From a virus, in IMG/VR virus record IMGVR_UViG_3300027850_000002, positions 96,001 through 160,000 of that record: DNA of 64,000 nt; one strand, 5' to 3'. A program made the position numbers and the translations under genes. The notes below the pieces were generated by a model that saw nothing but the letters and a program-made list of their open reading frames with translations, did no database searches and was not told the origin of the DNA. Shown piece after piece: positions 1,058 to 15,363 of this stretch (positions are counted from its first letter, which is position 1; each line of letters begins with the position of its first letter).

Positions 1058-2362
1058 ATGTTCAAGCATGCGTACGTCCGAGGCATCCAGACCGCGTTGG
1101 TCAACAACGGCGCAGCCGTGTTCCCCGACGAGACCACCGCGGCCAAGGTCGCGGACTACATCGCAGAGCGTGTCGAGATCGACCCGCTGACGGCGGTGCC
1201 ACGTGAGCTGACCCACAAGGTCGCCACTGACATCGTCGCTGCTTCGGATTGGATCAAGAAGCAGCCGAACTTCAAGGCGGCATCGTTCAACAAGCTCGCG
1301 ACGTGGGAAGACGTTGCGCAGGTCGCGGACCGCAACGCGACCCAGTTGATGACGAAGGCCGCCGAGGGTTCCACCATCGAAGGTGGCGACAAGGGAAACA
1401 CCGAGGGCCAGTCGCCTGTTGGTGAGACCAAGATGGACGCGACCCAGCGTCCTCCGGGCTACGCCGAGAACAGCCTCGGCAAGACCGACGTCGACACCCG
1501 TCCGGGCGCAGTTGGCAAGGAAGAGCCGCAGCCGGTTCAGCCCAAGGAGACTGACCACAAGGACAACTCGGTCGTGGAGCACTCGCGCACCGCGTCGCTC
1601 GCGGACATGTTCCGCAAGTCGGCTGAGGGTTCGACGATCCTCGGCGGAGACAAGGGCAACAAGGAGCCGACGACTGGCGAAGGCAAGATGGACGCGACGC
1701 AGCGTCCTCCGGGCTATGCCGTCCTTCCCCACCAGGGCGCCCTCGGTGCCATGATGGAGCAGGTCACGGGCCCCGCAGTGATCGGTCGCGAGACCCCGCA
1801 GCCGCACATGCCGAAGGAGTCGCCGAGCGGTTCGAACTCGCTCACCGAGCACTCGGCCAAGGCCGCTGCTGAAGACCCGTACATCACGCTCTTCAAGAAG
1901 GTCGCGTCCGAGATCCACGAGTACCTTCCGGGCGGTCTTCACGAGGACAGCAAGATCGCCGCGGTTCGCGCCTGCATGGGCATGACGACCGAAGAGAAGG
2001 CGTACTACCTCCGTGGCTTGCAGAAGGAAGCGGCCGACGCGTCGGTTGGTTCGGAAACGCGCACGGGTATGGGTCGCTCGCGTCCCGGTGCCTACGACGG
2101 TCGCTCTGCCAACCAGAGCACCAAGCAGACCGATGACCTTCCGCCGTTCATGAAGAAGGACGACGACGAGAAGAAGGACGAGAAGAAGGACGACGACAAG
2201 GGTGAGAGCAAGGGCGGAATGCCGGCATTCATCCAAGACAAGATCGACGCCCGCAACGCCGACAAGAAGGACGGCAACAAGGACGAGAAGAAGGATGACG
2301 ACAAGAAGGAAGCTTCGTTGCGCGACTTCTTCCGTCGCATCGACGCGGCCCAGCGCGCGTGA
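1058..2362 (+). CDS. putative internal head/core polyprotein with tag, many K-x-A sites and an internal duplication
   Basis: MFKHAYVRGIQTAL tag. About 10 K-x-A motifs, two ~80-aa repeats and an acidic/Lys-rich tail. Strong GC3 codon bias. Confidence 0.8.
   Translation: MFKHAYVRGIQTALVNNGAAVFPDETTAAKVADYIAERVEIDPLTAVPRELTHKVATDIVAASDWIKKQPNFKAASFNKLATWEDVAQVADRNATQLMTKAAEGSTIEGGDKGNTEGQSPVGETKMDATQRPPGYAENSLGKTDVDTRPGAVGKEEPQPVQPKETDHKDNSVVEHSRTASLADMFRKSAEGSTILGGDKGNKEPTTGEGKMDATQRPPGYAVLPHQGALGAMMEQVTGPAVIGRETPQPHMPKESPSGSNSLTEHSAKAAAEDPYITLFKKVASEIHEYLPGGLHEDSKIAAVRACMGMTTEEKAYYLRGLQKEAADASVGSETRTGMGRSRPGAYDGRSANQSTKQTDDLPPFMKKDDDEKKDEKKDDDKGESKGGMPAFIQDKIDARNADKKDGNKDEKKDDDKKEASLRDFFRRIDAAQRA
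1355..1855 (+). repeat. two ~80-aa direct repeats inside the 434-aa protein
   Basis: KAAEGSTIEGGDKGN..GETKMDATQRPPGYA..PQP..PKET..NSVVEHS (~1355-1585) versus KSAEGSTILGGDKGN..GEGKMDATQRPPGYA..PQP..PKES..NSLTEHS (~1616-1855). Confidence 0.9.
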
Positions 2363-2526
2363 GCCTTCTGCGTCACATCCGAGAAGCAGGTCGTCTCGCC
2401 GTCGAGAGCAAGCTCGCCGAGATCCTGAACCCTAGCCTCGGCACGCTCAAAGCGAAGAAGACGAAGGAGCTAGGCGGCCTCCCTGACGCAAATCTTCCCA
2501 AGGTCGTCTCTTTTCCCGCAGCGTAG
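2359..2526 (+). CDS. 55-aa protein not in the ORF track (MSLLRHIREAGRLAVESKLAE...)
   Basis: GTGA overlap with the upstream stop, fills the gap. N-terminus resembles that of 15372 (MSLLR..G..A) and contains KLA. Confidence 0.6.
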   Translation: MSLLRHIREAGRLAVESKLAEILNPSLGTLKAKKTKELGGLPDANLPKVVSFPAA

Positions 2527-2538
2527 ACGAGGTCCCAT

Positions 2539-5526
2539 ATGCCGGCGATGAGCCCACGCACACAGCAATTTCAAGCGGGCATGAATACCGGTCCGGACCA
2601 AGAGTCCGCTCTGTTCGAGCAGGGCATGTCCGAGATGGCATACAACCTGTTGTCATCGCGCATGCCCGACTTGATGCAGGACGTGGTCACCTTCAAGGTG
2701 CTCAACGTCGACATCGACAAGGGATCTGGTGTTGGTGCGTTCGTGGTCTTGCGCCAAGACTCGCCGATCTACGTCCCGGTCGTGATGGTCGACAATGCCA
2801 TCAAGCCGCTGGAAATTTTCTACCACAAGGCGCTGAGCGTCTTTCTGCCCCTCTCCAAGGGGTGGCTGGATGAGATCGAAAAGACGGCGCTCGCGTCACT
2901 CGGCTCTGGTGTCAAAACGCCCGAGACGCTCTACACGGACGTCGACATCCGCAACGTGGTCGTTCCCCCGATCACGGGTCGGTTCTCGTACGCCGCGTGG
3001 GTTCCCGCGGCTCTCGTTGACGTCGCACGTGTGATGTCCTCTGAGACCCTCGAGAAGGTCGCAAGCGAAGGAAGCCTCATGCTTCCGTCGCTCCTCACAG
3101 CTGCGCCGAACCGTCTGAAAACGGCGTACACCAAGCTGCTCGAACGCAACCCTCAGCTGTTCAAGCAGGCAGCTGCAACGTACGGCGTGTCCGTACTTGC
3201 TGCAGCGTTGCAGCACCGGCTCGAGAAGGTCGCTGCCAAGCAGCAGCACGGTGGCGCGCTTTGGATCGCGGACTCCGACAACACACCGACTGATTTCAGA
3301 CGCATCTTCGGCGACAAGGCCGGAGAAGCGTACGCAGGCGTGCGCGTGAAGGGCTACGCGTCGAAGGACGAGCGGCTGAACCGCAACCTGGCAGTGCAAG
3401 AGCAACCCTACGCGCAGTGGGTCGAGCCCAAGCAGCCGGGCGTCTACACGCTCTTCGCTTCTGATGCGAAGGAGCGCACTGCGTTTGTGATGCCTTTCCC
3501 GATTGACCTGTTCGACAAGGGCACGCGCTACGGCCGACGTCCGGCAGTGCCGGGACACAACCCGCTCATCAACAACTCGTACACAGACCCTGGTACCGAG
3601 AACCAGATCAAGACGTACCCCCACAGTCGGCCAAACGAGGGGGACTTTGCAACCCGTCGGCGTTTTGGCGCTGAACCGTTCCTCGCGGTGTTCGACAACG
3701 GAGACTACATCGAGCCGTCGATGCTCGTGGGACGTCCTTCCGTTGCAGATGATCTCAGCGGGTCACTGCACAAGCGGATGTTCACAGATGTGAGCGGAGC
3801 GCCGAAGGTCGGCAAGGGCTTCTTCGTTCGTCAGATGGGTACGACGTACCAAGCCACGGTGCCCATCGAGATCAAGTCGATGTCGACGGGCTCGGACGGT
3901 GTTCGTCGCATCAAGGCGACCAGCATGGGTGGCTACGAAGAGAAGACGATCGCAACAGACCCCGAGCATCCGTACAACACGATCTGGATGCCCAAGGGCG
4001 CGGACATCGCGTACCTCCCTGCGGACTTCATCTGGGTGCCGCTCAAGGAGCGCCTCAACGAGAAGTCCTGGTTCAGGTCTGCACTTGACCTACAGGCACA
4101 CGTTTCGTCGATGTTGGCTTCAGCAGGCGCGAAGAAGGTCGCGATCAAAGACGCGGGTGCCAAGCAGTTCTCCATCAACGGGATGGCACCACTCAGCTAC
4201 GTCCCTGCGCTCAAGAAACTTGCGCACGGTTGCAACATCTCGGTCGATGACGCTGAAGCACTGCTCGAAAAGACTGCGGCCGATCGATCAACGACCGCAT
4301 GGATCGCCACGAAGATGCAGCTCGCACAGGTGCAGATGCACCTCGACAAGCTTGCCGAGGACGGAGACAAGAAGAAGTCCGACGACAAGCCGAAGAAGAA
4401 GGCGCCTCCGAGCGATTCCGGAGCGCCTCCGGATGGCGGTGATCCAGGCATGGACCCGGGCATGGATCCAAACCTCGGCCAGGACGCGGCGATGGCTGCA
4501 ATGGGCCCTCCGCCGGCACCGCCGCAGCCAGCGCCGCTCGACCTCGCCGCAATGGAAATGGACCAGCACATCCAGCAGGAGATGCAGAAGCTGGTCGACA
4601 AACAGCAGACCATCCAGATGCTGCTGCAGCGTTCGAGTGAGATTGCAGGCGGCGCACCGCCCGCACCTACCGTTCAGACTCAAGCGATGGGCGCACCTCC
4701 GTCGTCGATGAACCTCGCGACGGGCGCTCCAGGCATGCAGCCCGGCATGACCGCCAGCATGGGTCAGCCGCAGCAGCCCGGCATGGATCCGTCGATGCAG
4801 GGTGGAGCGTTTCCACCTGCAGCGAACGACCCGTCGATGATGGGTGGACAGCCGCCCGGCGGTGGTCAGCCCGGCATGGACCCATCGATGGGCATGGACC
4901 CGACGATGGGTGGTCAGCCCGGCATGGACCCATCGATGGGCATGGACCCATCGATGGGCATGGACCCGACGATGGGTGGTCAGCCCGGCATGGATCCGTC
5001 GATGGGCATGGACCCGACGATGGGTGGTCAGCCCGGCATGGATCCGTCGATGGGTGCAGGCGGACCGCCTGCTATGGGTCAGGATCCGTCAATGATGGGC
5101 GGCATGGGCGGACAGCCCAGCATGGAACAGCCGCCACAACAGCCCAGCGCAATGATGCCGCCGGATGGTCCGAACGCGCAGACGCTTCCTCAGGAAGTCA
5201 ATCCGCACTTCCTCGACCAGGCGGCGCAGTTGCATTCGGCCGACATGTTCGACGCCGCAGCCGTTGCGACGCTCGCCCAGTCGCCGGCGCTTCACGGGAT
5301 CGTCGGGCAGTACCTGCCGAACCTCGAGAAGGCTGTCGACAACCTTGCACGTGTTCTCTTGACCTTGTGGATGCAGGAGTCGGACCTCAAGCCGCAGATC
5401 GGCGAACAGACCTTCTCGGGCCTCGAGGACAACCTGCAGACGACGTTCAAGGGTCTCGGAGACCTCGTGCTCCGTTTGAGCCGTGGTGTTCAGGCGGTCA
5501 AGGAGCCGGACAACCATGCGTCATGA
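2539..5526 (+). CDS. large putative internal head protein with K-x-A sites and Met/Gly/Pro repeat region
   Basis: 995 aa. Globular N-terminal part, EKVA/EKTA/DKLA motifs, GMDPSMGMDPTMGGQP repeats, helical C-terminus. Confidence 0.8.
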   Translation: MPAMSPRTQQFQAGMNTGPDQESALFEQGMSEMAYNLLSSRMPDLMQDVVTFKVLNVDIDKGSGVGAFVVLRQDSPIYVPVVMVDNAIKPLEIFYHKALSVFLPLSKGWLDEIEKTALASLGSGVKTPETLYTDVDIRNVVVPPITGRFSYAAWVPAALVDVARVMSSETLEKVASEGSLMLPSLLTAAPNRLKTAYTKLLERNPQLFKQAAATYGVSVLAAALQHRLEKVAAKQQHGGALWIADSDNTPTDFRRIFGDKAGEAYAGVRVKGYASKDERLNRNLAVQEQPYAQWVEPKQPGVYTLFASDAKERTAFVMPFPIDLFDKGTRYGRRPAVPGHNPLINNSYTDPGTENQIKTYPHSRPNEGDFATRRRFGAEPFLAVFDNGDYIEPSMLVGRPSVADDLSGSLHKRMFTDVSGAPKVGKGFFVRQMGTTYQATVPIEIKSMSTGSDGVRRIKATSMGGYEEKTIATDPEHPYNTIWMPKGADIAYLPADFIWVPLKERLNEKSWFRSALDLQAHVSSMLASAGAKKVAIKDAGAKQFSINGMAPLSYVPALKKLAHGCNISVDDAEALLEKTAADRSTTAWIATKMQLAQVQMHLDKLAEDGDKKKSDDKPKKKAPPSDSGAPPDGGDPGMDPGMDPNLGQDAAMAAMGPPPAPPQPAPLDLAAMEMDQHIQQEMQKLVDKQQTIQMLLQRSSEIAGGAPPAPTVQTQAMGAPPSSMNLATGAPGMQPGMTASMGQPQQPGMDPSMQGGAFPPAANDPSMMGGQPPGGGQPGMDPSMGMDPTMGGQPGMDPSMGMDPSMGMDPTMGGQPGMDPSMGMDPTMGGQPGMDPSMGAGGPPAMGQDPSMMGGMGGQPSMEQPPQQPSAMMPPDGPNAQTLPQEVNPHFLDQAAQLHSADMFDAAAVATLAQSPALHGIVGQYLPNLEKAVDNLARVLLTLWMQESDLKPQIGEQTFSGLEDNLQTTFKGLGDLVLRLSRGVQAVKEPDNHAS
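4771..5100 (+). repeat. coding tandem repeat (QPGMDPSMGMDPTMGG)n
   Basis: Repeated cagcccggcatgga(c/t)cc(a/g)tcgatgggcatggacccgacgatgggtggt units, in frame. Confidence 0.9.
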
Positions 5527-6187
5527 ACGCAGTCCCGACGACCGATTTCACGCCACTCTCCGGTCTCCGCATGCACCGGCGCATCCGTACGAAAACGCAC
5601 TCTGGCAGCACAAGACCGCGGGTGTGGCTGATGCCGTCGTTGAGCGTGTAGTCGACGCATACGAAGACCACTTCGAGCGCGAACTGCTTCAGGCATGGAT
5701 CATTGCGGGTGCAACCGACGAAGACATCAACAGGCGCATCGGCATGTCGCTTGATATGTTGATTCAGTACCGCCATCTCTGCTGCAACGTTTTCGCGTTT
5801 CGCGACAAACTAGAGATGATGCGATGGGTCAATAACTACAAGGGTTCTCGCTCGGGCAAGATTCTGCTCGAGAAGGCGCTCCACTTCGACGGCATCGAAG
5901 CAATCGCACACTTGAGCGGTCTTCCGACCAATCTCAGCGCAGACCATGTCAACGAGCAAGTACTGCGTGAATCATACTTCCGAGGCATCAGCACACTACG
6001 CGCCTCGAGCATCTCGGGACCTGACGCATTGGCCGCACATCAACTGATGAAGACTGCGACTGCTACGGCTGCGGCTGTGGCAAATCGAGGTGGACCGAAC
6101 ATGTCGGAGACGTTGCTCAAACTCAAGCACCGCGAGGTGACGTGGCATGTCGAGGACATCGCGCCTCACGGGGAGATTCTTCACTGA
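5516..6187 (+). CDS. hypothetical phage protein, possible HTH
   Basis: ATG 5516 overlaps the upstream end. GATDEDINRRIGMSLDMLIQY is HTH-like. Confidence 0.65.
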   Translation: MRHERSPDDRFHATLRSPHAPAHPYENALWQHKTAGVADAVVERVVDAYEDHFERELLQAWIIAGATDEDINRRIGMSLDMLIQYRHLCCNVFAFRDKLEMMRWVNNYKGSRSGKILLEKALHFDGIEAIAHLSGLPTNLSADHVNEQVLRESYFRGISTLRASSISGPDALAAHQLMKTATATAAAVANRGGPNMSETLLKLKHREVTWHVEDIAPHGEILH

Positions 6188-7203
6188 TGCGTGCATTCCG
6201 AGAACAAGACTTCGATCAGATGGCTGAGCGTGTCGTCGATCGTTTCATGAATGGCGCAAAGCTTGCGGATGCAGCGACTGCTGAAGCCGCGGGCGGTGCG
6301 TTGAACCCCGACCAGATCGCGCGCATGGTCCAGGCGGCGAACACACAGGCGTTCTTGCGTCTCATGGACCAACAGAAGGCCCAGGGCGTTCCGGACATGA
6401 CGAACGAGTTCGACCCCATCGACGCTCGCCAGATCGTCCAGCAGCTGATCAACCAGGTCCACGTTCCACACATGGACGGTCCCGGCGGCGAAATGCCTTC
6501 GATGCCAGGCGCAGGCGGAATGCCTCCACACGGTCCCGAAGACGACGCGATGTTGCCGCCGCACGCAGAACCTGACGGTGACGAAGGCGGGATGCCTCCG
6601 ATGCCACCCGGCGGCGACGACGGTCCGTTGCCGAACGAGATGGGTCTGCACGACCTCAGCGGCGATGAACCGGACGAGCCTGCGCACGGCGCCGGTGATG
6701 ACGACGACGGTCCGTTCCCCAAGGGCAAGAAGCAGAAGGCCAAGGACGACGGCGACAAGAAAGACAAGAAGAAGTCGCCGTTCCCGCCCAAGAAGGACGA
6801 AGCGAAGGAAGCGGCGTTCCGCGGTCGTCGCATCGACAAACTCGCGAGCGTACTCGAGGACCAGTACAAGCAGGCAGAGTGGGCGTTCGAAGACGTGTTC
6901 GCCAATCTCGGTCAGCAACTACGCCGTGCACACGGTGCACCTTCGGCAGCGGCATTCGAAAAGGACGCTCTCGCACTTCACAATCATGAGATCGGCCTCG
7001 TCGTGCTGAACATGGTCAAGGAGAGCCAAGGGCTGCCCCCAATCTCTGCGGATGACGCGGCCACGAAGACCGCGGCACTCGCAGACCGACATCTCGTCGA
7101 CGACACCGAGACCAATCGGACGTTCGCAACCCTGGTCAAGATCGCGGTCGACGCGAATCGTCTATGCCTCGGCGCCGCCCATGCGAGGTCCCAGTGCAGC
7201 TGA
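6187..7203 (+). CDS. putative head-core protein with K-x-A sites
   Basis: TGATG coupling. LNPDQIARMVQAANTQAFL...FDPID N-terminal domain, Pro/Asp-rich linker, KEAA/DKLA/TKTA/VKIA motifs. Confidence 0.75.
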   Translation: MRAFREQDFDQMAERVVDRFMNGAKLADAATAEAAGGALNPDQIARMVQAANTQAFLRLMDQQKAQGVPDMTNEFDPIDARQIVQQLINQVHVPHMDGPGGEMPSMPGAGGMPPHGPEDDAMLPPHAEPDGDEGGMPPMPPGGDDGPLPNEMGLHDLSGDEPDEPAHGAGDDDDGPFPKGKKQKAKDDGDKKDKKKSPFPPKKDEAKEAAFRGRRIDKLASVLEDQYKQAEWAFEDVFANLGQQLRRAHGAPSAAAFEKDALALHNHEIGLVVLNMVKESQGLPPISADDAATKTAALADRHLVDDTETNRTFATLVKIAVDANRLCLGAAHARSQCS

Positions 7204-7988
7204 CCGATGTGCTTCTACTGGCCGTGCGTGAAGGCGTACGTCGTCATGTCGAGAAACGTGCGGGTATCATGTTGCCACTCGCGGTCGGAGCGATGCTTCC
7301 CGGCATCGTGAACAAGGTGGTCAACCGCGCACACTCGACCGAGAAGCAGATCGAAAAGACGCACTACGACCCGATGAAGGTGGCAGCCATGTCGTCGTTG
7401 GCCGGGCTTTTTGGAGGCCTGGGTCGAGGTGCGTCGTCCGCAGGACACGGGATGTTTGGACAAGAAAACAAAAGCAACAAACCCAGCGGCTTTCGTGGTG
7501 GCCTCAGTGACCTGGGCGCGTCTCCAGTCGCGGGTGTTGCGAAGGGCATCTCTGGCGGCATCGGTCGTCGCATTGACCAAATGTTCGGCGGCCACGAGTT
7601 CGGTGAAAAAAAGGACCCGTACCACATGGGTGCGGGCGCCGCTGTACAGTCGTTCGGCAAAGAGATGGGTACGTCAGGGGCAAACCTGCTACGCGATATC
7701 GCGAACAAGGCGATGGAGGCAGCGGGTCACACAGGCGACGCTTCGGCACGCGAAGCCATCATCGGCGACCTCAAGCGTTCCGATTCCGTCCTCGCGAACG
7801 CGGACGACAAGACGCTCATGGAGGCCTACCACACGATGGCGCGCTTCGCGCCCGTGCTCTCGACGGACAAGAACGCCGTACGATCGTTCCTCCGCCAGGC
7901 CGTGATGGCTGGCTCAGGTCCTGACTTCATGTCCATCAAGCTGCTCGCAGACTCCGAACGCGCCGTCACGGGCGACAAGGATCGATAA
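7194..7988 (+). CDS. putative virion protein with hydrophobic/Gly-rich segments after K-x-A sites
   Basis: EKRA|GIMLPLAVGAML and MKVA|AMSSLAGLFGG. C-terminal helical domain. Confidence 0.7.
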   Translation: MQLTDVLLLAVREGVRRHVEKRAGIMLPLAVGAMLPGIVNKVVNRAHSTEKQIEKTHYDPMKVAAMSSLAGLFGGLGRGASSAGHGMFGQENKSNKPSGFRGGLSDLGASPVAGVAKGISGGIGRRIDQMFGGHEFGEKKDPYHMGAGAAVQSFGKEMGTSGANLLRDIANKAMEAAGHTGDASAREAIIGDLKRSDSVLANADDKTLMEAYHTMARFAPVLSTDKNAVRSFLRQAVMAGSGPDFMSIKLLADSERAVTGDKDR

Positions 7989-8446
7989 TGACCCTCGACG
8001 ACCTCATCCCGCCGAACGTCACTGCTGCTGTTCGCGATCTTGGACTTCACAAGATCGCAGGCGCGATGCTCGGCGTCCCTGAGCTGACCATCAAAGAGGC
8101 TGTGGCCACGGTTGGCGCGAAGGCCTACCTCCGTCGCAAGGAAGCGCGCAGCATCGTCGATGGCATCGTAGCCTTCGCCGCACTGACGAACGAGAAGGTC
8201 GCGGACAACGCTGCGCTCATGGCGATGCTTCGCCGTGCTGCAATGCCGGCGCTCGCGGGCGCGGGTATCGCGGCGATTCCCCAGCTCATGTCGAACGACC
8301 CGAACCAATATGGTCACGAAAGTCTCTTGCCCGCGATGGGTATGGGCGCCCTACTCGGCGGCGGCATGGGTGCGATGAACTCCATGCGGCAGCTCCCACC
8401 TGATGTCAGCCAAGGCGCGGCACACGCTTTCCGCCAGATGCCATGA
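7988..8446 (+). CDS. Gly-zipper membrane-type virion protein
   Basis: HKIA and EKVA, then AAMPALAGAGIAAI and AMGMGALLGGGMGA. Confidence 0.7.
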   Translation: MTLDDLIPPNVTAAVRDLGLHKIAGAMLGVPELTIKEAVATVGAKAYLRRKEARSIVDGIVAFAALTNEKVADNAALMAMLRRAAMPALAGAGIAAIPQLMSNDPNQYGHESLLPAMGMGALLGGGMGAMNSMRQLPPDVSQGAAHAFRQMP

Positions 8447-9012
8447 CGTCCTTTGCTCGCGCTCTCGAAACGTCGGTCCTTCTCGCGGAGAAGATCGCGT
8501 CGTCGCGCTCGGAAAACCCGACGTTACGAGAGAAGCTCGCGCTCGCTGACTTCGCTGCGTTCGGCCTCTTCAAGCGGGCAGCGCTCGACCCAGCGGCCTT
8601 GTCTTCGCTGCAGCGTGGACTCGGTTGGGGTGTTGGGCTCGGAATCCCCGCGCTCGCTGCGGGACACATGTTCTTGAACGATGCGCGCGACCACAGCGGC
8701 GAAGTCCTGCGTGATGCACGCAACCAAGCGCTCATCACGGCAGCGGGCGTTGGCGGCATGCAAGCGCTCGGGGAGGCTTTCAAACGGAAGCCACAACCGT
8801 CGCAACACAACGTCAACGTTTCAATGCCGCAACAGCCAGAGCAGCCACAGCTCGACGATCAGCAAAGGCTCGCCGCCGCCATCATGGTCGATGATGTGCT
8901 CGAGGCAGCGTGCAGTCAGCTTAGCGATCCTGTCGCAAAGCACGCAGCGCTCGTGGAACTCATCAAACACCGCAGTGAAGCGACGAACCTTCTACGGAGT
9001 CTTTTGTCGTGA
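8443..9012 (+). CDS. Gly-zipper membrane-type virion protein
   Basis: EKIA/EKLA/FKRA, then GLGWGVGLGIPALAAG and ITAAGVGGM. Confidence 0.7.
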   Translation: MTSFARALETSVLLAEKIASSRSENPTLREKLALADFAAFGLFKRAALDPAALSSLQRGLGWGVGLGIPALAAGHMFLNDARDHSGEVLRDARNQALITAAGVGGMQALGEAFKRKPQPSQHNVNVSMPQQPEQPQLDDQQRLAAAIMVDDVLEAACSQLSDPVAKHAALVELIKHRSEATNLLRSLLS

Positions 9013-10751
9013 AGAAGATCATCGAGCTGGATGACTACTTTCCGACGGGTGAACCGACCGTTCAAATCATCCTGCCGTGGAACAACGGACGTAGCGTCGA
9101 CACGAGTCGTGTTACCAAGTACGCGTCCGAAGCGCTCGATTACATCAAGCACGTCGCACCTGAGCCTGGCAAAACCGCGCTCCTGCTCAACGCGATGGGC
9201 GCCGAGGAGACCTACGGACCGAACCGCAACGGCGATGGGTTCCCTGAGTTTCCCGTCCCAGCTCGCGGCAAGATTGCATCGGCAGATCGTCGTTGGTTCG
9301 TACCACCGGGCGAAGAGCTGACGCACCATTACGCGTCGTTCGAAAAGAATCCTGCCCACGCGTTCATGCACCACGCAAACCGAGATCCGTCGAAGGCCTC
9401 TGGCGTGGTGAAGAAGGCGTTCTGGAATCCGCGCATGCATCGCGTGGAGCTGCTTACCCTTGTCGACAACGACAAGGACCCCGAGTGGATCAAGCGTGCG
9501 AGCGACGGTGAGTTCGTGCCCGTCAGCATGGGCTGTCGAATCAAGCGTGATGTCTGCGCACGATGCGGCAACGAAGCGCCCACGCGCGCGGACTACTGCG
9601 ACCACGTGAAGTTCGCGATGAATCAGGTCGACTCGAACGGGTTCAAGGACTATGTCCACAACCCATCGCCCGACTTTTTCGACATCTCGCGCGTGTTCCG
9701 CCCTGCGGATCGTACGGGCTACACACTCAAGAAAGTCGCAGAGACCTACGAGGTCCGACTCTCGGCAGACCTCGGCGAGATCGCCGATCGTCTCGCGCTC
9801 AAGAGCGGTGCTTCGCAAAAGCTATCCGACATCGACAAAGTGATTCGCGCTGAACCGCTCGCGTCCAGTACGCTCACACCAGACGAGAAATCGTTCATCG
9901 TAAAATTCCGGGACCACGCGGGTCCCAAGCTCGCGGCTGCACCGCGCATCAACACGGCAGGTCTGCATGTGTGGTCTCTCGGAGAGACGCTCACCGCTGC
10001 CGCAAAACACGGTGTCGTATTCAACGACCGTGAATTCATCGGACTCGCAACAAGCAAGCTCGCAGGACATCCAGTCACATTGCTTGAAGCACAGACGGAC
10101 AAGATCGCAGCCGCCGGTCGTTGGTCGCTCGCGCTGTTTGCTGAACGCCCTGAGCTACTCGCCGAAGTGATTGATAGCGGCGTGCTCGAGTCTTCAAAGA
10201 CCGCGAAGGAGTTAGATGTATTCTTCGCGAGTGTGAGCGAGAAGCGTGCGTACGCCGGAGAGATGCTCTATCGACGTCTCGTACCTGAAGATATCGGACT
10301 TGGCCCTGACGCTGCGCCCACCACGGACGTGCTGCACACGCAATACGGTGACACCACACGCGGTGCAGCGATCGATGCACAAGACGCAGTCACGCGAGCA
10401 CACATGGGCAAGGTGGTTGGCGGTGCAGGTCTGCTCCTCGGCGGATACAAAGCGCTCACTGCATTTCCATGGATGCGTAAATTCAAGGTGCCGCTTGCGA
10501 TCGGAGCAGGGGCTCTCGGCGCATCCACGTTGGGCAAACGTCCTGGTGGAACAATGCGTACCGATGAAGGCTACGACATTCCAGACATCACAGAACTGAC
10601 GTCGAAGACTGCATCGCAGGCGGCGTTTGTTCACCTTATCGAATGCGCACAAACAATGACGCGCAGATTCGATTTCTCGAGTATCAAGGTTGCGAACCTG
10701 GCGTCGTTAGATCAGGTGGCCATGGCGCTCGGTTCCATCGTCTTGACTTGA
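9009..10751 (+). CDS. prohead (capsid maturation) serine protease with Zn ribbon and C-terminal extension
   Basis: NRNGDGFP, FMHHAN (candidate His), VSMGC (candidate Ser), CARCGN..CDH. This is the layout of HK97/assemblin-fold phage proteases. Lies upstream of scaffold-like genes and the MCP. Confidence 0.75.
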   Translation: MKKIIELDDYFPTGEPTVQIILPWNNGRSVDTSRVTKYASEALDYIKHVAPEPGKTALLLNAMGAEETYGPNRNGDGFPEFPVPARGKIASADRRWFVPPGEELTHHYASFEKNPAHAFMHHANRDPSKASGVVKKAFWNPRMHRVELLTLVDNDKDPEWIKRASDGEFVPVSMGCRIKRDVCARCGNEAPTRADYCDHVKFAMNQVDSNGFKDYVHNPSPDFFDISRVFRPADRTGYTLKKVAETYEVRLSADLGEIADRLALKSGASQKLSDIDKVIRAEPLASSTLTPDEKSFIVKFRDHAGPKLAAAPRINTAGLHVWSLGETLTAAAKHGVVFNDREFIGLATSKLAGHPVTLLEAQTDKIAAAGRWSLALFAERPELLAEVIDSGVLESSKTAKELDVFFASVSEKRAYAGEMLYRRLVPEDIGLGPDAAPTTDVLHTQYGDTTRGAAIDAQDAVTRAHMGKVVGGAGLLLGGYKALTAFPWMRKFKVPLAIGAGALGASTLGKRPGGTMRTDEGYDIPDITELTSKTASQAAFVHLIECAQTMTRRFDFSSIKVANLASLDQVAMALGSIVLT

Positions 10752-10774
10752 ATTTGTTTTTCACCGCACGGCCC

Positions 10775-10783
10775 CCTATCATT
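10775..10783 (+). promoter_or_regulatory. putative late promoter motif CCTATCATT
   Basis: Intergenic, preceded by a T-rich tract, upstream of the scaffold-capsid operon (GGAG RBS, ATG 10810). Confidence 0.7.
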
Positions 10784-10809
10784 TTCACCGTAACGGAGAC
10801 GGCAATTCC

Positions 10810-11388
10810 ATGAAGCTCTCAAACGCACTCGGGATGATCAAAGGCGGCGAAAAGACCGCGAGCGCACCTGCGCCCACGGGAACTGCCTCTTCGTCGAGCG
10901 ACGCCGGCGAGCGCCTCAAGCAGGCACTCAAAGAAGCGACCGCTCCGGCACTACAGGCCAAGACGGCGGGTCAAGCCTCGCCCATCGAGGACCTGACCAA
11001 GATCGCCAATGACCTGAGCAAGGCCGAACATGACGCGCTGACCAAGGAGGCGCAGATGTATGGCGCCGCGGTCTGCGATGGTTTCATGGCGCGCGCAGCT
11101 CAGTACCAGGAAGCGGCCACGAAGGTCGCGGCCACGATGCCCACGAAGACCGCCGCGGTTGCAGGGGGCACATCGGACTTCGAGAAGTTCGCGTTCGAGA
11201 ACCCCGACCTGGTGAAGGAAGCCGCGGAACTCGGCTACGCCACCACGAAGAACCAGCTCGAGAAGCTCGGCGAAGCAGCCTACGCCAAGGGCTGGAACGA
11301 CACGGTCGAGACAATCCACAAGACGGCGAGCGATGCATTCATCGCCGGCTTCAAGGACACCCTCGCTCTGTTCGAGGGCGCACGCTGA
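10810..11388 (+). CDS. scaffold-like helical protein, very K-x-A rich
   Basis: EKTA, AKTA, TKIA, TKEA, TKVA, TKTA, EKFA, VKEA, HKTA in 192 aa. Internal AYAKGW motif. Sits between protease and MCP. Confidence 0.7.
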   Translation: MKLSNALGMIKGGEKTASAPAPTGTASSSSDAGERLKQALKEATAPALQAKTAGQASPIEDLTKIANDLSKAEHDALTKEAQMYGAAVCDGFMARAAQYQEAATKVAATMPTKTAAVAGGTSDFEKFAFENPDLVKEAAELGYATTKNQLEKLGEAAYAKGWNDTVETIHKTASDAFIAGFKDTLALFEGAR

Positions 11389-11391
11389 TCC

Positions 11392-11667
11392 ATGTCCGAT
11401 GTGAGCTACATCGACGCGGTCTCTCGCCTCAAGCATGCAGCTGAGGTGAAGGCCGCCGCAGATCCGGCGCTCGTCAAGGCGCTGCTCGGCGGAGGTGCAC
11501 TACTCGGTGGTGGTGCACTGCTCGGAAGCCATGTCGCGCACAAGCGCGATGAGGCAGCGCGCGAGCGCGCGAAGAACACTGGCTTCGGAGCTGGTGTTGC
11601 AACAGGTATGGTGGGTCCCCAGATCATTGATGCATTGCACGCCGTGATGCACCGAGGTGGTCAGTGA
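11392..11667 (+). CDS. small Gly-zipper protein
   Basis: LKHA/VKAA then LLGGGALLGGGALLG and GFGAGVATG. Confidence 0.7.
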   Translation: MSDVSYIDAVSRLKHAAEVKAAADPALVKALLGGGALLGGGALLGSHVAHKRDEAARERAKNTGFGAGVATGMVGPQIIDALHAVMHRGGQ

Positions 11668-11873
11668 GCCGCGTCCATCTTTCTCTTGTCGTTGACGAGG
11701 TGCTCGCCGAGGCGAACACCGTGTCCATGCGCAAGAACGCCGAAACGACTGCGATCAAGGTCGCAGCAGCGCAACCCAAGACCGAGACAGCGCGCAGCCT
11801 GCGTGCCCTCGCTGACGAAGTTCGTACTGCATCTGACGATGTGACGTACGATGACTTCACGGGTGCACTGTGA
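11664..11873 (+). CDS. small helical head-assembly protein
   Basis: GTGA overlap. RKNA and IKVA motifs. Confidence 0.65.
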   Translation: MSRVHLSLVVDEVLAEANTVSMRKNAETTAIKVAAAQPKTETARSLRALADEVRTASDDVTYDDFTGAL

Positions 11874-12025
11874 AGGAATCTGAAATGCTTCGTTCGATTG
11901 CGAATGACCTGCGCGAGCAGGGCACAAAGCAAGCCGAGACCCGCAAGGTCAAGGCAGCAAGCATCCTCGTTGCAGCGACCGGATTCGGTATGCTGCGCGC
12001 CAAGCTCGGAGGCACTCGTGGTTAA
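11870..12025 (+). CDS. 51-aa protein not in the ORF track (MKESEMLRSIANDLREQG...)
   Basis: GTGA overlap with the upstream stop, fills the gap. Resembles LRALADEVR of the upstream ORF. Confidence 0.6.
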   Translation: MKESEMLRSIANDLREQGTKQAETRKVKAASILVAATGFGMLRAKLGGTRG

Positions 12026-12371
12026 TCACGCCAAGCTCGCGGCGGTCTTCGACGCGATGGCCGACTACATCGACGAAGTCGAGACCGAGAAGACCTCATC
12101 TGTCGAAAGCGCGCGTCAAGCTCGCATCGACAAGGTTGCAACCCTACACGCCGCCGCGCACGGTGAAGAGTTGTCCGAGACCACACGCAAGAAGCTCGCT
12201 TCTAGCGATGCGGCCCTCGATTATGTCGAGGACTTGCTGTCCAAGCAGGCCGGCGTCGTTACTCCCCTCGGTGCAGGAGCGTCATCGGACGATGACACTC
12301 AGCCCAAGACAATCAAACAAGCAGCTGATGCGGCGGACGAACGATTCGTCAGCTGGATCGTTTCCTCGTAG
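12018..12371 (+). CDS. scaffold-like protein
   Basis: GGAGG RBS before GTG 12018. AKLA/DKVA/KKLA/SKQA/IKQA motifs. Ends ADERFVSWIVS. Confidence 0.7.
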   Translation: MVNHAKLAAVFDAMADYIDEVETEKTSSVESARQARIDKVATLHAAAHGEELSETTRKKLASSDAALDYVEDLLSKQAGVVTPLGAGASSDDDTQPKTIKQAADAADERFVSWIVSS

Positions 12372-12397
12372 CGCATTCTTTCCGGAGGCAGACTAAG

Positions 12398-12862
12398 ATG
12401 ATCCTGAACAGCAAGTTCGACGTTCTGCGCGGTTGGCCCCGTGAAGGCGCAATCGACGAGTCCTTCACCATCAAACAGACCGTGCCCGGAACGGATGACC
12501 TGCTGCCACTCGGCACGGTCATCTCCGTTACCGCGACCGGCGTCGTTGCAGTGACTTCCACGCCAAATCGTGCAACGACCAACCCCGTTGCAACATGGGT
12601 CGTGGTCGCCGGCAACGACGACTTCTCGAGCCAGTTCGTCCACAAGGTTGTGGCGCTCCGCAGCAATGCAGAGTTCAAGCTGGACCCAGCGAACTTCAAC
12701 GCAGGTGTCTACACCCCGGGCACCAAGCTGACGTTCAGCGCCGGCAAGTGGCAGCCCGCCGTCGCGGGCAACCAGATCATCGGTGAGGTCCTCCAGGACA
12801 ACACCGCGACCGACGGCACGATCGTCGTGTTCTACACCGGCGGCGACGCCGCGGCCCTCTGA
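12398..12862 (+). CDS. capsid decoration/cement protein
   Basis: Beta-rich 154-aa protein directly upstream of the MCP, ending in GTKLTFSAGKW...IIGEV. Confidence 0.6.
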   Translation: MILNSKFDVLRGWPREGAIDESFTIKQTVPGTDDLLPLGTVISVTATGVVAVTSTPNRATTNPVATWVVVAGNDDFSSQFVHKVVALRSNAEFKLDPANFNAGVYTPGTKLTFSAGKWQPAVAGNQIIGEVLQDNTATDGTIVVFYTGGDAAAL

Positions 12863-12889
12863 GCCCTGGACTAAGGAGAACCACACAAC

Positions 12890-13828
12890 ATGTCGGCAGC
12901 GTACAAAACTCAGACCCAGCAGGTCTCGGCTCAGTTCATCAACTCCAACTTCGTCCGTAAGGTCGAGGACGGTCGCACCAAGGAGGCGGAGGCCGAGGGC
13001 ACCGCCTTCATCCGCCAGAAGCTCCGTCAGGAATCCTTCGCGCGCGAGATCATCGAGCCAGTCATGCTGGCGGACGATGAGATCGACCGCGACGAGAACA
13101 CGGATCAGCCCAAGAAGATCGTCGAGAAGGAGCCCGACTCCGTCGCCACGTTCGTGCCGTTCAACGGTACGGCGCAGCGCACGTGGTTCCGTGGCAAGCG
13201 CTTCTCGGTCTTCTTCGGCAAGACCGAGTCGCAGCGGTTCACCAAGAACAAGTTCGAGCTGATGACGTATCAGAACGACATCCGCAAGATCCTCTCCGAC
13301 AACTCGGTGAAGGACATGTCGGACCAGGAAGACCAGAAGTTCCTGGACACCATCAACGCGATCATCGCGTTGAACCTCGCGACGCAGCGCACCCTCGCGG
13401 GCGCGTTCAACTCGAGCGCGTTCAAGCAAGGCTTCCAGGCGCTCGTCAATCGGAAGCAGCCAATCGGCAAGCTCCTGATGTCGAAGTCGACGTACTACGA
13501 GGCCCTCGACCTGCCGGCGACCGCCGTCGGTAACGACGTGGCGTCGCGGCACTACGACGTGGGCATCGAGGCCGAGGAGAAGCTGTGGGGCATCCCCGTG
13601 GTTTCGACCATCAAGCGTGAGATCGTCGACGACGTCGCCGGTGCCACCCGCCGCTCGGTCTACGTGTTCGCGCCGCAGAACTACCTCGGCGTGTTCTTCC
13701 TGCTGCAGGACGCAACCCTGTACATCAAGCAGGAAGCCGACATCATCGAGTTCTGGAGCTACGCAGCCCCGGGCATCGGGATCGGCAACACGCTCGCGTC
13801 GCAGCGTATCGACCTGCCGTTCGCCTGA
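12890..13828 (+). CDS. major capsid protein (HK97 fold)
   Basis: Strong RBS TAAGGAG, strong codon bias, 312 aa. FIRQKLRQESFAREII N-arm, backbone helix DIRKILSDNSVKDMSDQEDQKFL, LWGIPVVSTIK, VYVFAP..LG. Followed by a hairpin. Confidence 0.8.
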   Translation: MSAAYKTQTQQVSAQFINSNFVRKVEDGRTKEAEAEGTAFIRQKLRQESFAREIIEPVMLADDEIDRDENTDQPKKIVEKEPDSVATFVPFNGTAQRTWFRGKRFSVFFGKTESQRFTKNKFELMTYQNDIRKILSDNSVKDMSDQEDQKFLDTINAIIALNLATQRTLAGAFNSSAFKQGFQALVNRKQPIGKLLMSKSTYYEALDLPATAVGNDVASRHYDVGIEAEEKLWGIPVVSTIKREIVDDVAGATRRSVYVFAPQNYLGVFFLLQDATLYIKQEADIIEFWSYAAPGIGIGNTLASQRIDLPFA

Positions 13829-14419: not shown

Positions 14420-14899
14420 ATGCCGGTCATTGGAACACCGACGACGCCGACGGTGGTCTCAAAGGACCAAGTCCGCATGTTCATGCGTGACTATGCGAAC
14501 AACAACATCCTCCTCGACGATGTACAGTTCACCGATAAAGAACTGAACCTGGCGCTAGCCATGGCGACGAGTGCGTTCAATACCGTCACTCCCCAGACGA
14601 ACTTCACACCGTCGACATTTCCTCCGCAGCTGATGTACCTCCTGCTCATTGGTACGGTTCGATTCCTGCTCATGAGCGAGTCGTTCATGCAGGCAAGAAA
14701 CCAGGCGACCGTGCAGGACGGTGACATCTCACCAATCGGCATTTCAGATAAGGCCCAGCTGTATTCGTCGCTGGCGCAACAACTCAAGGCCGAGTGGGAT
14801 GAACTAACACGCGGTGTGAAGACGCAGAACAACATGGAAGCGGCCTACGCTTCATTGGGTTCTGGGTACCGAAACACGTCGCGGTTCAATCACTCGTGA
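14420..14899 (+). CDS. head-tail adaptor (neck) protein
   Basis: Helical 159 aa after MCP (VRMFMRD...FTDKELNLAL...). Position and pattern fit neck adaptors. Confidence 0.55.
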   Translation: MPVIGTPTTPTVVSKDQVRMFMRDYANNNILLDDVQFTDKELNLALAMATSAFNTVTPQTNFTPSTFPPQLMYLLLIGTVRFLLMSESFMQARNQATVQDGDISPIGISDKAQLYSSLAQQLKAEWDELTRGVKTQNNMEAAYASLGSGYRNTSRFNHS

Positions 14900-15165
14900 C
14901 CGTTCGCGCGTCATACGTGTGCGGACGGAATGCAGCGCTCGCACGGTTCAAGCTCGCAGGTACGATGGGTGCGAGCATCGGCGTCCAGCCAAAAGGTCCC
15001 GAGGTCAGCCACGGCACGGATCGCACGCAGTACCCGCCACAATCCGGCGGCACCAGTGCAGCACGTTCGAACATGCCTGATTGGTTGTGGGACCACTTCA
15101 CATCCTACGACAAGGTCGCGCCAGGGCGCGCGGATGGTACGTACGGACAAGAAGTCATCGGGTAA
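14896..15165 (+). CDS. small tagged virion protein
   Basis: MTVRASYVCGRNAALARFKLAG: tag followed by KLA. Confidence 0.7.
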   Translation: MTVRASYVCGRNAALARFKLAGTMGASIGVQPKGPEVSHGTDRTQYPPQSGGTSAARSNMPDWLWDHFTSYDKVAPGRADGTYGQEVIG

Positions 15166-15172
15166 AATTCGC

Positions 15173-15181
15173 CCTATAATT
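15173..15181 (+). promoter_or_regulatory. putative late promoter motif CCTATAATT (leaderless start)
   Basis: 5 nt before ATG 15187, no SD. Confidence 0.7.
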
Positions 15182-15186
15182 CAACC

Positions 15187-15363
15187 ATGTCGAACCACCT
15201 GAAGACCGCACACGAGTACGGCGTCCAGAAGGCGCTCGAGAACGTCGGATACAAGAGCGCGGAGGAAGTCCGCCGCGATGCCGAGGCGCTCGGCATTCTC
15301 GAGCAGCCGACGAAGACGGCATCGACCTCGCTCGACGACCTGTTCCGCGCGCTCCAGAAGTAA
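15187..15363 (+). CDS. 58-aa tagged protein not in the ORF track
   Basis: MSNHLKTAHEYGVQKALENVGYKSAEE...TKTAS...; good codon usage. Confidence 0.75.
   Translation: MSNHLKTAHEYGVQKALENVGYKSAEEVRRDAEALGILEQPTKTASTSLDDLFRALQK

Follow-up and report, generated by a model that had tools for sequence, protein, structure and literature searches.

What is the role of a Lys-x-Ala tripeptide (K-x-A) that recurs in many conserved copies in the internal head proteins of an uncultured 175-kb phage, and likewise in those of hundreds of its relatives? We addressed this question in a 64,000-nucleotide stretch of the genome (the window; positions 96,001 to 160,000 of IMG/VR record IMGVR_UViG_3300027850_000002), where an initial annotation had described K-x-A saturation of the head-region proteins and had proposed cleavage after the Ala. 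We consider it probable that the phage's own prohead serine protease, the product of the gene at 9009-10751, recognizes K-x-A and cleaves at it. The saturation is real, but its extent had been underestimated: about 10, 9 and about 8 copies had been reported for the proteins starting at 1058 and 10810 and for the protease, and we count 12, 11 and 14, whereas the five copies reported for the protein at 12018 are exactly those counted. The head-module genes and their K-x-A contents are:

1058-2362, plus strand: 434-aa head-module protein, 12 K-x-A against 5.05 expected
2539-5526, plus strand: 995-aa portal-like protein, 12 against 5.46
5483-6187, plus strand: 234-aa head-module protein, 2 against 0.92, not enriched on its own
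6142-7203, plus strand: 353-aa head-module protein, 7 against 2.98
7164-7988, plus strand: 274-aa head-module protein, 3 against 2.09
7988-8446, plus strand: 152-aa head-module protein, 4 against 0.95, all within residues 1-72
8443-9012, plus strand: 189-aa head-module protein, 4 against 1.14
9009-10751, plus strand: 580-aa predicted prohead protease, 14 against 4.38
10810-11388, plus strand: 192-aa Ala-rich scaffold-like protein, 11 against 3.84
11392-11873, plus strand: two small head-module proteins of 91 and 69 aa, 2 each
11898-12371, plus strand: small head-module protein, 5 against 1.54

Counted genome-wide, the 13 genes upstream of the major capsid protein (MCP) gene hold 79 K-x-A against 30.5 expected, versus 249 against 240.0 in the other 204 genes. 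This is the composition-controlled count by protein class that had been proposed as a check, and it came out as predicted. With composition shuffles, the pooled head module yielded 76 versus 29.3 (z 8.6) and the rest of the window 61 versus 55.3. Tail and early proteins do not share the density of the head proteins, and K-x-A is indeed rare in the MCP (gene 12890-13828; 1 versus 2.04), the sheath (1 versus 1.32) and the hub/spike-like protein at 23283-24689 (0 versus 1.47), as the initial annotation had judged by eye. A short motif is thus abundant in scaffold, core and protease proteins and not in tail or replication proteins. K-x-A ranks first in the head module among all residue pairs at gaps 0-4, with no enrichment there of KA (20), KxxA (38), AxK (20) or RxA (23 versus 24.8), which rules out a general helix bias as the cause. 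When residues were shuffled inside blocks of 8-40, which keeps local composition, 2000 trials averaged about 31 copies and never exceeded 50, against the real 79 (z about 10), so that local composition is ruled out as well; so is a DNA-level motif, as the coding frame contains AAR-NNN-GC 78 times and the two alternative frames contain it 7 and 6 times. On the basis of these controls, the excess depends on spacing, order and frame. As a positive control, we applied the same scan to T4 gp67, gp68, gp21 and gp22, and I-x-E came out on top with L-x-E in third place. L/I-x-E is the established motif of gp21 (PMC5694885), so the scan recovers a genuine prohead-protease motif. The K-x-A feature extends beyond 1058-12371 to an MCP site (12980-12988), to small tagged proteins (14896-15363) and to one gene outside the window:

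genome positions 65880-67076: K-x-A-rich gene, 10 against 2.0 expected

At 78 sites, the motif Ala is followed by A (21), S (13), G (7), E (6), T (5) or L (5), in keeping with the earlier remark that mostly A, S, G, E or D follow (A, S, G and E together make up about 60%). Ser is enriched 2.6-fold at this position while Lys and Pro are depleted, and the middle position is depleted of Pro, Gly and Asp, with beta-branched residues following the motif Lys. Strong preferences span P5 to P2', and the fuller consensus reads [L/F/I]-E-K-[V/I/L/T]-A↓[S/A/E/G], where the arrow marks the predicted cut. We infer that the motif is cleaved, the best reading by analogy being K(P3)-x-A(P1)↓S/A/E/G; the cut is placed after Ala because of the P3-x-P1 pattern of the T4 and phiKZ enzymes, the Ala-Ser bond of herpesvirus assemblin and the small residues that follow the motif Ala.

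The 580-aa protein has a domain with the T4 gp21/assemblin fold at residues ~40-244, followed by a helical C-terminal extension. In the AF2 model, pLDDT exceeds 90 over residues 50-240, and VIA-align scored this model against T4 gp21 (5jbl_A) at Z 10.1 (129 aligned residues, rmsd 2.9 A), against the VZV protease (1vzv) at Z 9.9, and against other herpesvirus proteases at Z 9.1 (PRV), Z 7.7 (HSV-2) and, for many, Z 6.5-9. The assemblin fold assigned earlier is thereby borne out in the model, the call resting on VIA-align re-scoring since Foldseek alone was weak (E about 0.05, above 0.04). The protein matches phrog_18299, 'head maturation protease' (E 1.9e-7). Pfam returned no match to it even at E 10, Peptidase_S77 and Peptidase_S78 included, and no other prohead-protease family (S77, S78, ClpP) was found in the whole genome; with phrog_18299 as the only match, the protein represents a separate sequence family within the fold. 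A PDB sequence search with the protein alone found nothing, and one with its profile found designed coiled coils (L-K-K-I-A repeats) and FliJ only. A conserved His is followed about 50 residues downstream by a conserved Ser, the predicted catalytic pair, and a candidate self-cleavage site lies at the end of the domain:

9372-9374, plus strand: His122, proposed catalytic histidine, invariant in 72 homologues
9525-9527, plus strand: Ser173, proposed catalytic serine, invariant in 72 homologues
9732-9740, plus strand: K242-V-A244, candidate self-cleavage site, with K242 and A244 at least 90% conserved in 72 homologues

By motif, His122 corresponds to T4 gp21 His85, H-x-N-x-D-P resembling T4 H85-(x)4-N-V-D-P. 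Ser173 was paired with T4 gp21 Ser140 by hhalign at a probability of only 1.2%, the alignment being used solely to map the Ser. Relatives carry inteins at about residues 118-121, approximately at His122, and at residue 175, two residues downstream of Ser173. K242-V-A244 comprises the last residues of the domain's final strand, with pLDDT falling at 244-248, and a cut there would free the C-terminal extension. Of the protease's 14 K-x-A sites, six fall within the folded domain and three within secondary-structure elements, which counts against their being cleavage sites. On the other hand, at 5/14 sites in the model the motif Ala is the final or penultimate residue of a helix or strand (11% expected, p 0.014), and such placement at element ends (p 0.014 and 0.08) is weakly supportive of cleavage.

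The gene order, with the portal-like gene at 2539-5526, the protease at 9009-10751, the scaffold-like gene at 10810-11388 and the MCP at 12890-13828, puts the protease in a head module between portal and scaffold/MCP, and it is identical in Salmonella phage Arash and Vibrio phage D69; the Arash counterparts of the protease and the scaffold-like protein are gp222 and gp223. The portal-like protein, weakly similar to phage G gp14 (portal) and Arash gp218, has K-x-A clusters at residues 115-230 and 486-620, with a long Pro/Gly/Met-rich repeat region C-terminal to them. The protein at 1058-2362 has an N-terminal tag and an internal duplication, and for 9 of its 12 sites conservation across orthologues is at least 83%; at 6142-7203 it is at least 86% for 7/7. 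The gene at 11898-12371 probably starts near 12018, given that orthologue matches cover only ~112-118 residues. Pfam and PHROGs searches of the remaining head-module proteins gave no usable matches.

Following the pattern established for T4 gp21 and phiKZ gp175, the protease would co-assemble within the procapsid with the K-x-A-rich proteins, namely the 192-aa scaffold-like protein, several small internal proteins, the portal and proteins with an N-terminal tag. The enzyme would bind its substrates as extended strands, with Lys in S3 and Ala in S1, and cut after the Ala; the Lys might be met by an invariant acidic residue, E147, D181 and D225 being candidates. The scaffold would be chopped to short peptides (cutting at all 11 sites would reduce the 192-aa protein to pieces of 4-35 residues), the tags would be removed from cargo proteins, and the protease would shed its own C-terminal extension and finally destroy itself.

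The MCP carries a single K-x-A, at a position that would suit maturation:

12980-12988, plus strand: K31-E-A33, the only K-x-A of the MCP, candidate maturation site

K31-E-A33 is invariant in 123/123 homologues, including those of Arash and Vibrio D69, and 76/77 loci, with MCP identities as low as 36%, retain a K-x-A at about residue 30 of the MCP, its middle residue being E, Q, L or N. A cut after A33 would remove ~33 residues and leave a 279-residue mature protein beginning at Glu34. Because the first 30 residues of the MCP are highly conserved too, K-E-A may owe its invariance to a structural role. Depletion of K-x-A from the mature MCP (0-1 observed versus 1.3-1.9 expected) may lend the cleavage reading weak support. 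A PDB search with the MCP profile found nothing meaningful, and an AlphaFold model of the MCP (31 close homologues) reached a pLDDT of 43.6, at which K31-A33 is not placeable relative to the HK97 fold.

At least nine proteins of the genome share an N-terminal tag, A-[YFH]-x-x-G-x-x-x-A-[LC]-x-x-[FYH], with a K-x-A at or just past its end in 5/9; orthologues in L005, L007, L011 and L013 have K-x-A at the tag end even where the copy in the window does not. The T4 capsid targeting sequence, an N-terminal tag that ends in a protease site, may offer a parallel. Downstream of the MCP gene lie:

14896-15363, plus strand: two small tagged proteins with K-x-A at the tag end, 2 and 3 sites in total (excess p ~0.02-0.04 each)

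Across orthologues, the motif Lys is 90.3% conserved versus 67.3% for other Lys, and the motif Ala 88.6% versus 66.5% for other Ala, while the middle residue drifts, a pattern of conservation that shows purifying selection on the motif. Arash (44 versus 19.7), Vibrio phage D69 (49 versus 20.2) and 54 of 58 related viral contigs with proteases 30-92% identical (3879 versus 1603) likewise have K-x-A as their top motif. Within the protease itself it is enriched in 148/150 representatives, and it is the top motif (600 versus 255) of the non-homologous C-terminal tails of 139 representative proteases. Every computational outcome that the initial annotation had called for or implied favours the predicted K-x-A specificity. 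The lineage comprises at least 580 viral contigs and 3160 protease clusters at 50% identity, and the motif and the protease family co-occur in it across Salmonella, Vibrio and freshwater hosts. Arash is a cultured member, with more than 80% of its genes lacking an assigned function. Its virion proteome covers 100% of the sequence of the K-x-A-rich gp221, gp223 and gp224, indicating that scaffold-like proteins or their fragments are still in the preparation; with 116 proteins listed and tryptic peptides only, these data neither show nor exclude cleavage. Coverage of the Arash MCP (86.6%) is likewise uninformative on cleavage, the proteome consisting of coverage figures from a tryptic digest.

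Could the motif have a role other than cleavage? Contact with the inner capsid surface, the scaffold or DNA, or lysine modification, would fit the conservation and the head restriction just as a common binding partner would, and the full coverage of K-x-A-rich proteins in Arash virion preparations points the same way. Such an uncleaved motif is nonetheless unlikely: it does not explain why a site should mark the very end of the protease domain or directly follow N-terminal tags, leaves the single copy near the MCP N-terminus and the 11 copies in a 192-aa protein unexplained, and has to account for a pattern that mirrors the T4 motifs cleaved by experiment. We regard as rather unlikely, too, that K-x-A is recognized and the bond cut is another one, after the Lys or one residue further downstream. 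HK97 gp4 cuts after a Lys, and because preferences run from P5 to P2', the sequence statistics are compatible with more than one cut bond and register of the motif; but the known enzymes of this fold use P3-x-P1 with a small residue after the cut, and here Ser, Ala and Gly follow the motif Ala whereas beta-branched residues follow the Lys. The position of the motif Ala near helix or strand ends in the protease model also argues for a cut after Ala.

Two further explanations have a much smaller chance of being correct. The link between the enzyme and the sites is one of sequence and genome context, and host proteases do process the capsid proteins of some phages, as in staphylococcal phage 80alpha. 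It is nevertheless highly improbable that a host protease or another phage enzyme cuts these sites, given that the motif travels with the protease family from Salmonella to Vibrio and freshwater hosts, that it is enriched in the protease itself, and that the genome search disclosed no second prohead-protease family. The least probable explanation, and one largely refuted, attributes the excess to composition, or to the helical or coiled-coil character of scaffold proteins rich in Ala and Lys. Many head-module proteins are indeed Ala-rich and helical, and designed L-K-K-I-A coiled coils are among the PDB matches of the protease profile; against this stand the block shuffles, the lack of enrichment of KA, KxxA, AxK and RxA, the far greater conservation of motif residues than of other Lys and Ala, and the finding that the motif occurs in the MCP and, within the protease domain, in strands and loops too.

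Among comparable systems, T4 gp21 (MEROPS S77) acts on L/I-x-E sites in gp22, gp67, gp68, internal proteins, gp23 and gp24. T4 gp21 and the predicted protease share a fold and a gene position between portal and MCP, adjoining scaffold genes, and in both cases a motif of P3-x-P1 type saturates the scaffold, the core proteins and the enzyme itself. The motif here is Lys-x-Ala rather than Leu/Ile-x-Glu, however, and the enzyme, to which Pfam S77 does not match, has 580 aa, with a ~330-residue helical extension and a CxxC...CxH insertion in the catalytic domain. Herpesvirus assemblin (MEROPS S21) cuts (V/L/I)-x-Ala↓Ser at its M and R sites with a His-Ser-His triad. It is similar in fold, in the proposed P1 Ala, in Ser as the most enriched next residue and in a self-release site after the catalytic domain of a protease-scaffold fusion, for which there is a candidate here, but it differs in its hydrophobic P3 (Lys here), in having two sites instead of dozens in many proteins, and in its triad, only His and Ser being proposed here. 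The phages of phiKZ gp175 and SPN3US gp245 are, like this one, large myoviruses whose heads contain many internal proteins and whose virions carry a multisubunit RNA polymerase. In phiKZ and SPN3US, propeptides contain multiple sites and the protease cleaves itself C-terminally (PMC5694885, PMC10052503), for which K242-x-A244 is the candidate equivalent. These enzymes cut after Glu, at S/A/G-x-E for gp175 (PMC5694885) and A-x-E for gp245, whereas Lys and Ala are fixed here, and no sequence similarity of the protease to either was detected.

To our knowledge, the cleavage specificity of only a few prohead proteases has been established by experiment. A Lys-x-Ala site would give the gp21/assemblin fold a new specificity, the T4/phiKZ-type giant-phage examples that we checked cutting after Glu (PMC5694885); we call it new because a non-exhaustive literature search found no report on K-x-A or on an Ala-P1 phage prohead protease. 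A broader proposal, to which we give somewhat less than even weight, is that a large, almost wholly uncultured lineage uses a capsid-loading code made up of an N-terminal targeting helix and Lys-x-Ala sites, read by a gp21/assemblin-fold protease with Lys at P3 and Ala at P1. If so, this would be a third specificity class for the fold in phages and a case of convergence on the Ala-Ser bond of herpesvirus assemblin, and the sequence alone would suffice to predict which cargo proteins are packaged and ejected. As such a marker, K-x-A would flag procapsid-entering proteins in otherwise unannotatable phages and would predict the places of scaffold degradation as well as mature N-termini, such as Glu34 of the MCP here and Gly30 of the Arash MCP, gp226, after K27-E-A29. 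Further cuts after K-x-A would be expected in Arash gp218 and gp220-225; with Arash in culture, the prediction is directly testable.

The N-terminal domain of the protease has sequence homologues in Rhodococcus phage E3 gp77 ('prohead protease'), Mycobacterium phage Myrna gp97 and Bacillus phage G gp19, the first two being protease-scaffold fusions of actinobacteriophages. The K-x-A signal is much weaker in these phages than here. In Myrna gp97, K-x-A (15 versus 7.35) and R-x-A (16 versus 8.07) are both in excess, though neither ranks first; the actinophage motif resembles [K/R]-x-A. In phage G, gp19 (8 versus 2.45) and gp21 (7 versus 2.83) show an excess of K-x-A, and the MCP contains none. 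The MCPs of E3 and Myrna both contain a K-L-A near residue 45.

The window covers bases 96001-160000 of one viral contig of 175,415 bp (~60% G+C). Among cultured phages, Salmonella phage Arash (~40% identity) and Vibrio phages D69, D148 and D181 stand nearest to it by major capsid protein (MCP) and protease; more remotely, Bacillus phage G and large actinobacteriophages encode homologues of the protease. The head module spans 1058-13828 on the + strand, with tail sheath, hub and related genes downstream, and is ordered as follows:

From 1058, + strand: tagged 434-aa protein
2539-5526, + strand: 995-aa portal-like protein
Next, + strand: five unknown proteins
9009-10751, + strand: 580-aa protease
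10810-11388, + strand: 192-aa Ala-rich scaffold-like protein
Next, + strand: three small proteins
Next, + strand: 154-aa protein occupying the place of a decoration protein
12890-13828, + strand: MCP, 312 aa

The initial annotation had proposed that Lys-any-Ala (K-x-A) crowds the head-region proteins and is scarce in MCP, sheath and spike. Per-gene expectations obtained by shuffling each protein 2000 times bore this out, with an excess in nearly all genes of 1058-12371 (for instance 12 observed vs 5.05 expected, 12 vs 5.46, 14 vs 4.38 and 11 vs 3.84) and none in MCP (1 vs 2.04), sheath (1 vs 1.32), hub (0 vs 1.47) or terminase (5 vs 4.27); nor was the motif over-represented in large replication-type proteins. 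Over the whole genome, K-x-A reached 79 vs 30.5 in the 13 head-module genes upstream of MCP as against 249 vs 240.0 in the other 204. When all 400 residue pairs at gaps 0-4 were scanned without bias in the head proteins, none was as enriched as K-x-A (76 vs 29.3, z 8.6; 61 vs 55.3 in the remainder of the window), and KA (20), KxxA (38), AxK (20) and RxA (23 vs 24.8) were at or below expectation. The signal resides in protein and not in DNA, as AAR-NNN-GC occurs 78 times in frame vs 7 and 6 times in the other frames. The scan also gave secondary PxM and GxxP signals, which stem from a long low-complexity Pro/Gly/Met-rich region of the portal-like protein (residues ~620-860; 4400-5100), which holds many G-M-D-P-S-M-G-type repeats; the Arash counterpart, at 615 aa, is too short for such a region of that size. 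Outside the head module, a single gene had p < 0.01 for K-x-A (genome 65880-67076, 10 vs 2.0). It lies on the + strand ~30 kb upstream of the window (L019:1881-3077 in the compared DNA), its sole family match is a weak PHROG of unknown function, and its product is a candidate for an additional head-internal or ejected protein.

As a control, the same scan of T4 gp67, gp68, gp21 and gp22 ranked I-x-E first and L-x-E third, and revealed nothing comparable in gp17-gp20. Since L/I-x-E is the gp21 site established by experiment (PMC5694885), this recovery validates the crowding of one motif in scaffold and core proteins as a signature of a prohead-protease site.

K-x-A is under selection. In alignments to orthologues at 32-85% identity from metagenomic viral contigs, 90.3% of comparisons kept the motif Lys and 88.6% the motif Ala, vs 67.3% and 66.5% for other Lys and Ala, and the middle residue was free to vary (e.g. 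KVA to KTA to KIA). Density was maintained in every relative (76 vs 27.2 in locus L013, 32-57% identical), and in both Arash (44 vs 19.7) and Vibrio D69 (49 vs 20.2) K-x-A again headed the unbiased scan of the head module. Of 58 further viral contigs with a protease 30-92% identical, 54 likewise had K-x-A as their top motif, and in the remaining four it came second or third (total 3879 vs 1603). An exhaustive HMMER search assigned 3160 clusters at 50% identity to the protease domain family; in the best 150 cluster representatives K-x-A stood at 1319 vs 575, above expectation in 148, and it led the ranking once more in their fast-evolving C-terminal tails (600 vs 255, z 21.6). The excess is thus lineage-wide, with an extended consensus of [L/F/I]-E-K-[V/I/L/T]-A-[S/A/E/G] in which Pro, Gly and Asp are under-represented at the middle position, as are Lys and Pro behind Ala. 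In remoter homologues the signal is weaker or modified: Bacillus phage G gp19 has K-x-A at 8 vs 2.45, Mycobacterium phage Myrna gp97 has K-x-A plus R-x-A at 31 vs 15.4, and both actinophage MCPs carry K-L-A near residue 45. Myrna gp97 (L017:8818-12453) is annotated 'tape measure', yet looks like a protease-scaffold fusion because of its N-terminal homologous protease domain and its place just upstream of MCP; Rhodococcus phage E3 gp77 is annotated as such a fusion.

The 580-aa protein matched PHROG 18299 'head maturation protease' (E 1.9e-7) and annotated prohead/capsid-maturation proteases of Rhodococcus phage E3 and Gordonia phage Stormageddon. It matched no Pfam model and none of the curated S77 and S78 sequence models, the latter a point against the protease-site reading. 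Its AlphaFold model (72 homologues) has pLDDT > 90 over residues ~50-240, and VIA-align matched it best to T4 gp21 (5jbl_A, Z 10.1, rmsd 2.9 Å, 129 residues) and next to the VZV, PRV, HSV and HCMV proteases (Z 7-10), in agreement with the earlier suggestion of a fold shared with herpesvirus assemblin. The proposed catalytic residues, His122 and Ser173, are invariant among homologues; Ser173 aligns with T4 Ser140 in a low-probability hhalign match, and the segment behind His122 resembles that behind T4 His85. Inteins favour active sites, and in several relatives inteins with LAGLIDADG endonucleases split the gene at residues ~118-121 and 175, adjoining both residues (P0001, P0002, P0008 and ~30 other representatives of 900-1400 aa carry one or two inteins, each Hint plus LAGLIDADG homing endonuclease). 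An invariant C183-x-x-C186 ... C197-x-H199 cluster of the catalytic domain (residues 183-199; 9555-9608) looks like a zinc-ribbon-type insert placed after the proposed catalytic Ser and before the last strands, a segment that T4 gp21 lacks at that position. The Arash homologue, gp222 (L001, record 146737-148212; 37% identity over residues 31-293), bears no annotation beyond 'structural protein', and the Arash paper does not mention a protease.

We consider K-x-A best read as the site of the 580-aa protease (P3 Lys, P1 Ala), such that the cut would fall after Ala. This register is suggested by the P3-x-P1 pattern of T4 and phiKZ, by the small residues, Ser above all, that follow Ala, and by the parallel between the proposed Ala P1 and herpesvirus assemblin, whose site is V/L-x-A↓S; on these grounds a cut at another bond within the motif is improbable. 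The T4 gp21 and phiKZ gp175 systems share mode of working and fold with the window protease, but the latter belongs to a separate sequence family and has a different motif. The phage enzymes of this type that were checked, those of T4, phiKZ, 201phi2-1 and SPN3US, cut after Glu (PMC5694885, PMC10052503), and our non-exhaustive literature search turned up no phage prohead protease described with Lys-x-Ala or Ala-P1 specificity.

The K-x-A reading is statistically well supported, and cleavage itself is predicted. There is a small chance that the motif is conserved but uncleaved: full coverage of several K-x-A-rich proteins in the Arash virion proteome speaks against cutting, but does not settle the matter because 116 proteins were listed and only tryptic peptides searched. 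Cutting by a host protease or other enzyme is very unlikely; no S77, S78 or ClpP-type protease was detected elsewhere in the genome (estimated 94% complete). Least plausible is an excess born of composition or helix bias, which is contradicted by the unbiased pair scan, by orthologue conservation and by shuffles inside 8-40-residue blocks; these left the expectation at ~31 (maximum 50 in 2000 trials) and therefore rule out local Lys and Ala co-enrichment as the cause. Cleavage at K-x-A is directly testable in phage Arash.

The only K-x-A of MCP, K31-E-A33, is invariant in 123/123 MCP homologues. By locus, 76 of 77 retain a K-x-A there, even where MCP identity falls to 36%; its middle residue is E, Q, L or N, and the single apparent exception has a K-T-A displaced by an alignment gap. 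MCP residues 1-30 are likewise well conserved, a point against the protease-site reading. In the protease, the nearly invariant K242 and A244 end the catalytic domain's final strand, and model confidence drops right after, at 244-248; this is the position expected of a self-release site, which we predict it to be, and phiKZ gp175 and SPN3US gp245 have theirs at such a position (PMC5694885). The placement of protease motifs at the ends of structural elements in the model is suggestive only (at 5 of 14 sites Ala is the final or penultimate residue of a helix or strand, vs 11% expected, p 0.014; 11 of 14 fall in coil or at the ends of elements, p 0.08). By computation, full cutting at every K-x-A would leave the 192-aa scaffold-like protein as pieces of 4-35 residues.

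At least nine otherwise unrelated proteins share an N-terminal peptide, A-[YFH]-x-x-G-x-x-x-A-[LC]-x-x-[FYH] (window 342, 785, 1070, 14911, 15208, 29972, 30424 and 42574; genome 93780), which is conserved in relatives and frequently bracketed by K-x-A. The motif lies at or just behind its end in 5 of 9 proteins, and orthologues in relatives carry it at this spot, including those whose window copy lacks it. The peptide is a candidate capsid-targeting tag; in T4 a similar capsid targeting sequence terminates in a gp21 site. The tagged 434-aa protein also contains an internal duplication of ~85 residues (residues ~100-250; 1340-1800), either copy of which begins directly behind a K-x-A (K-A-A followed by E-G-S-T-I, and K-S-A followed by E-G-S-T-I), and then a Lys/Asp/Glu-rich tail.
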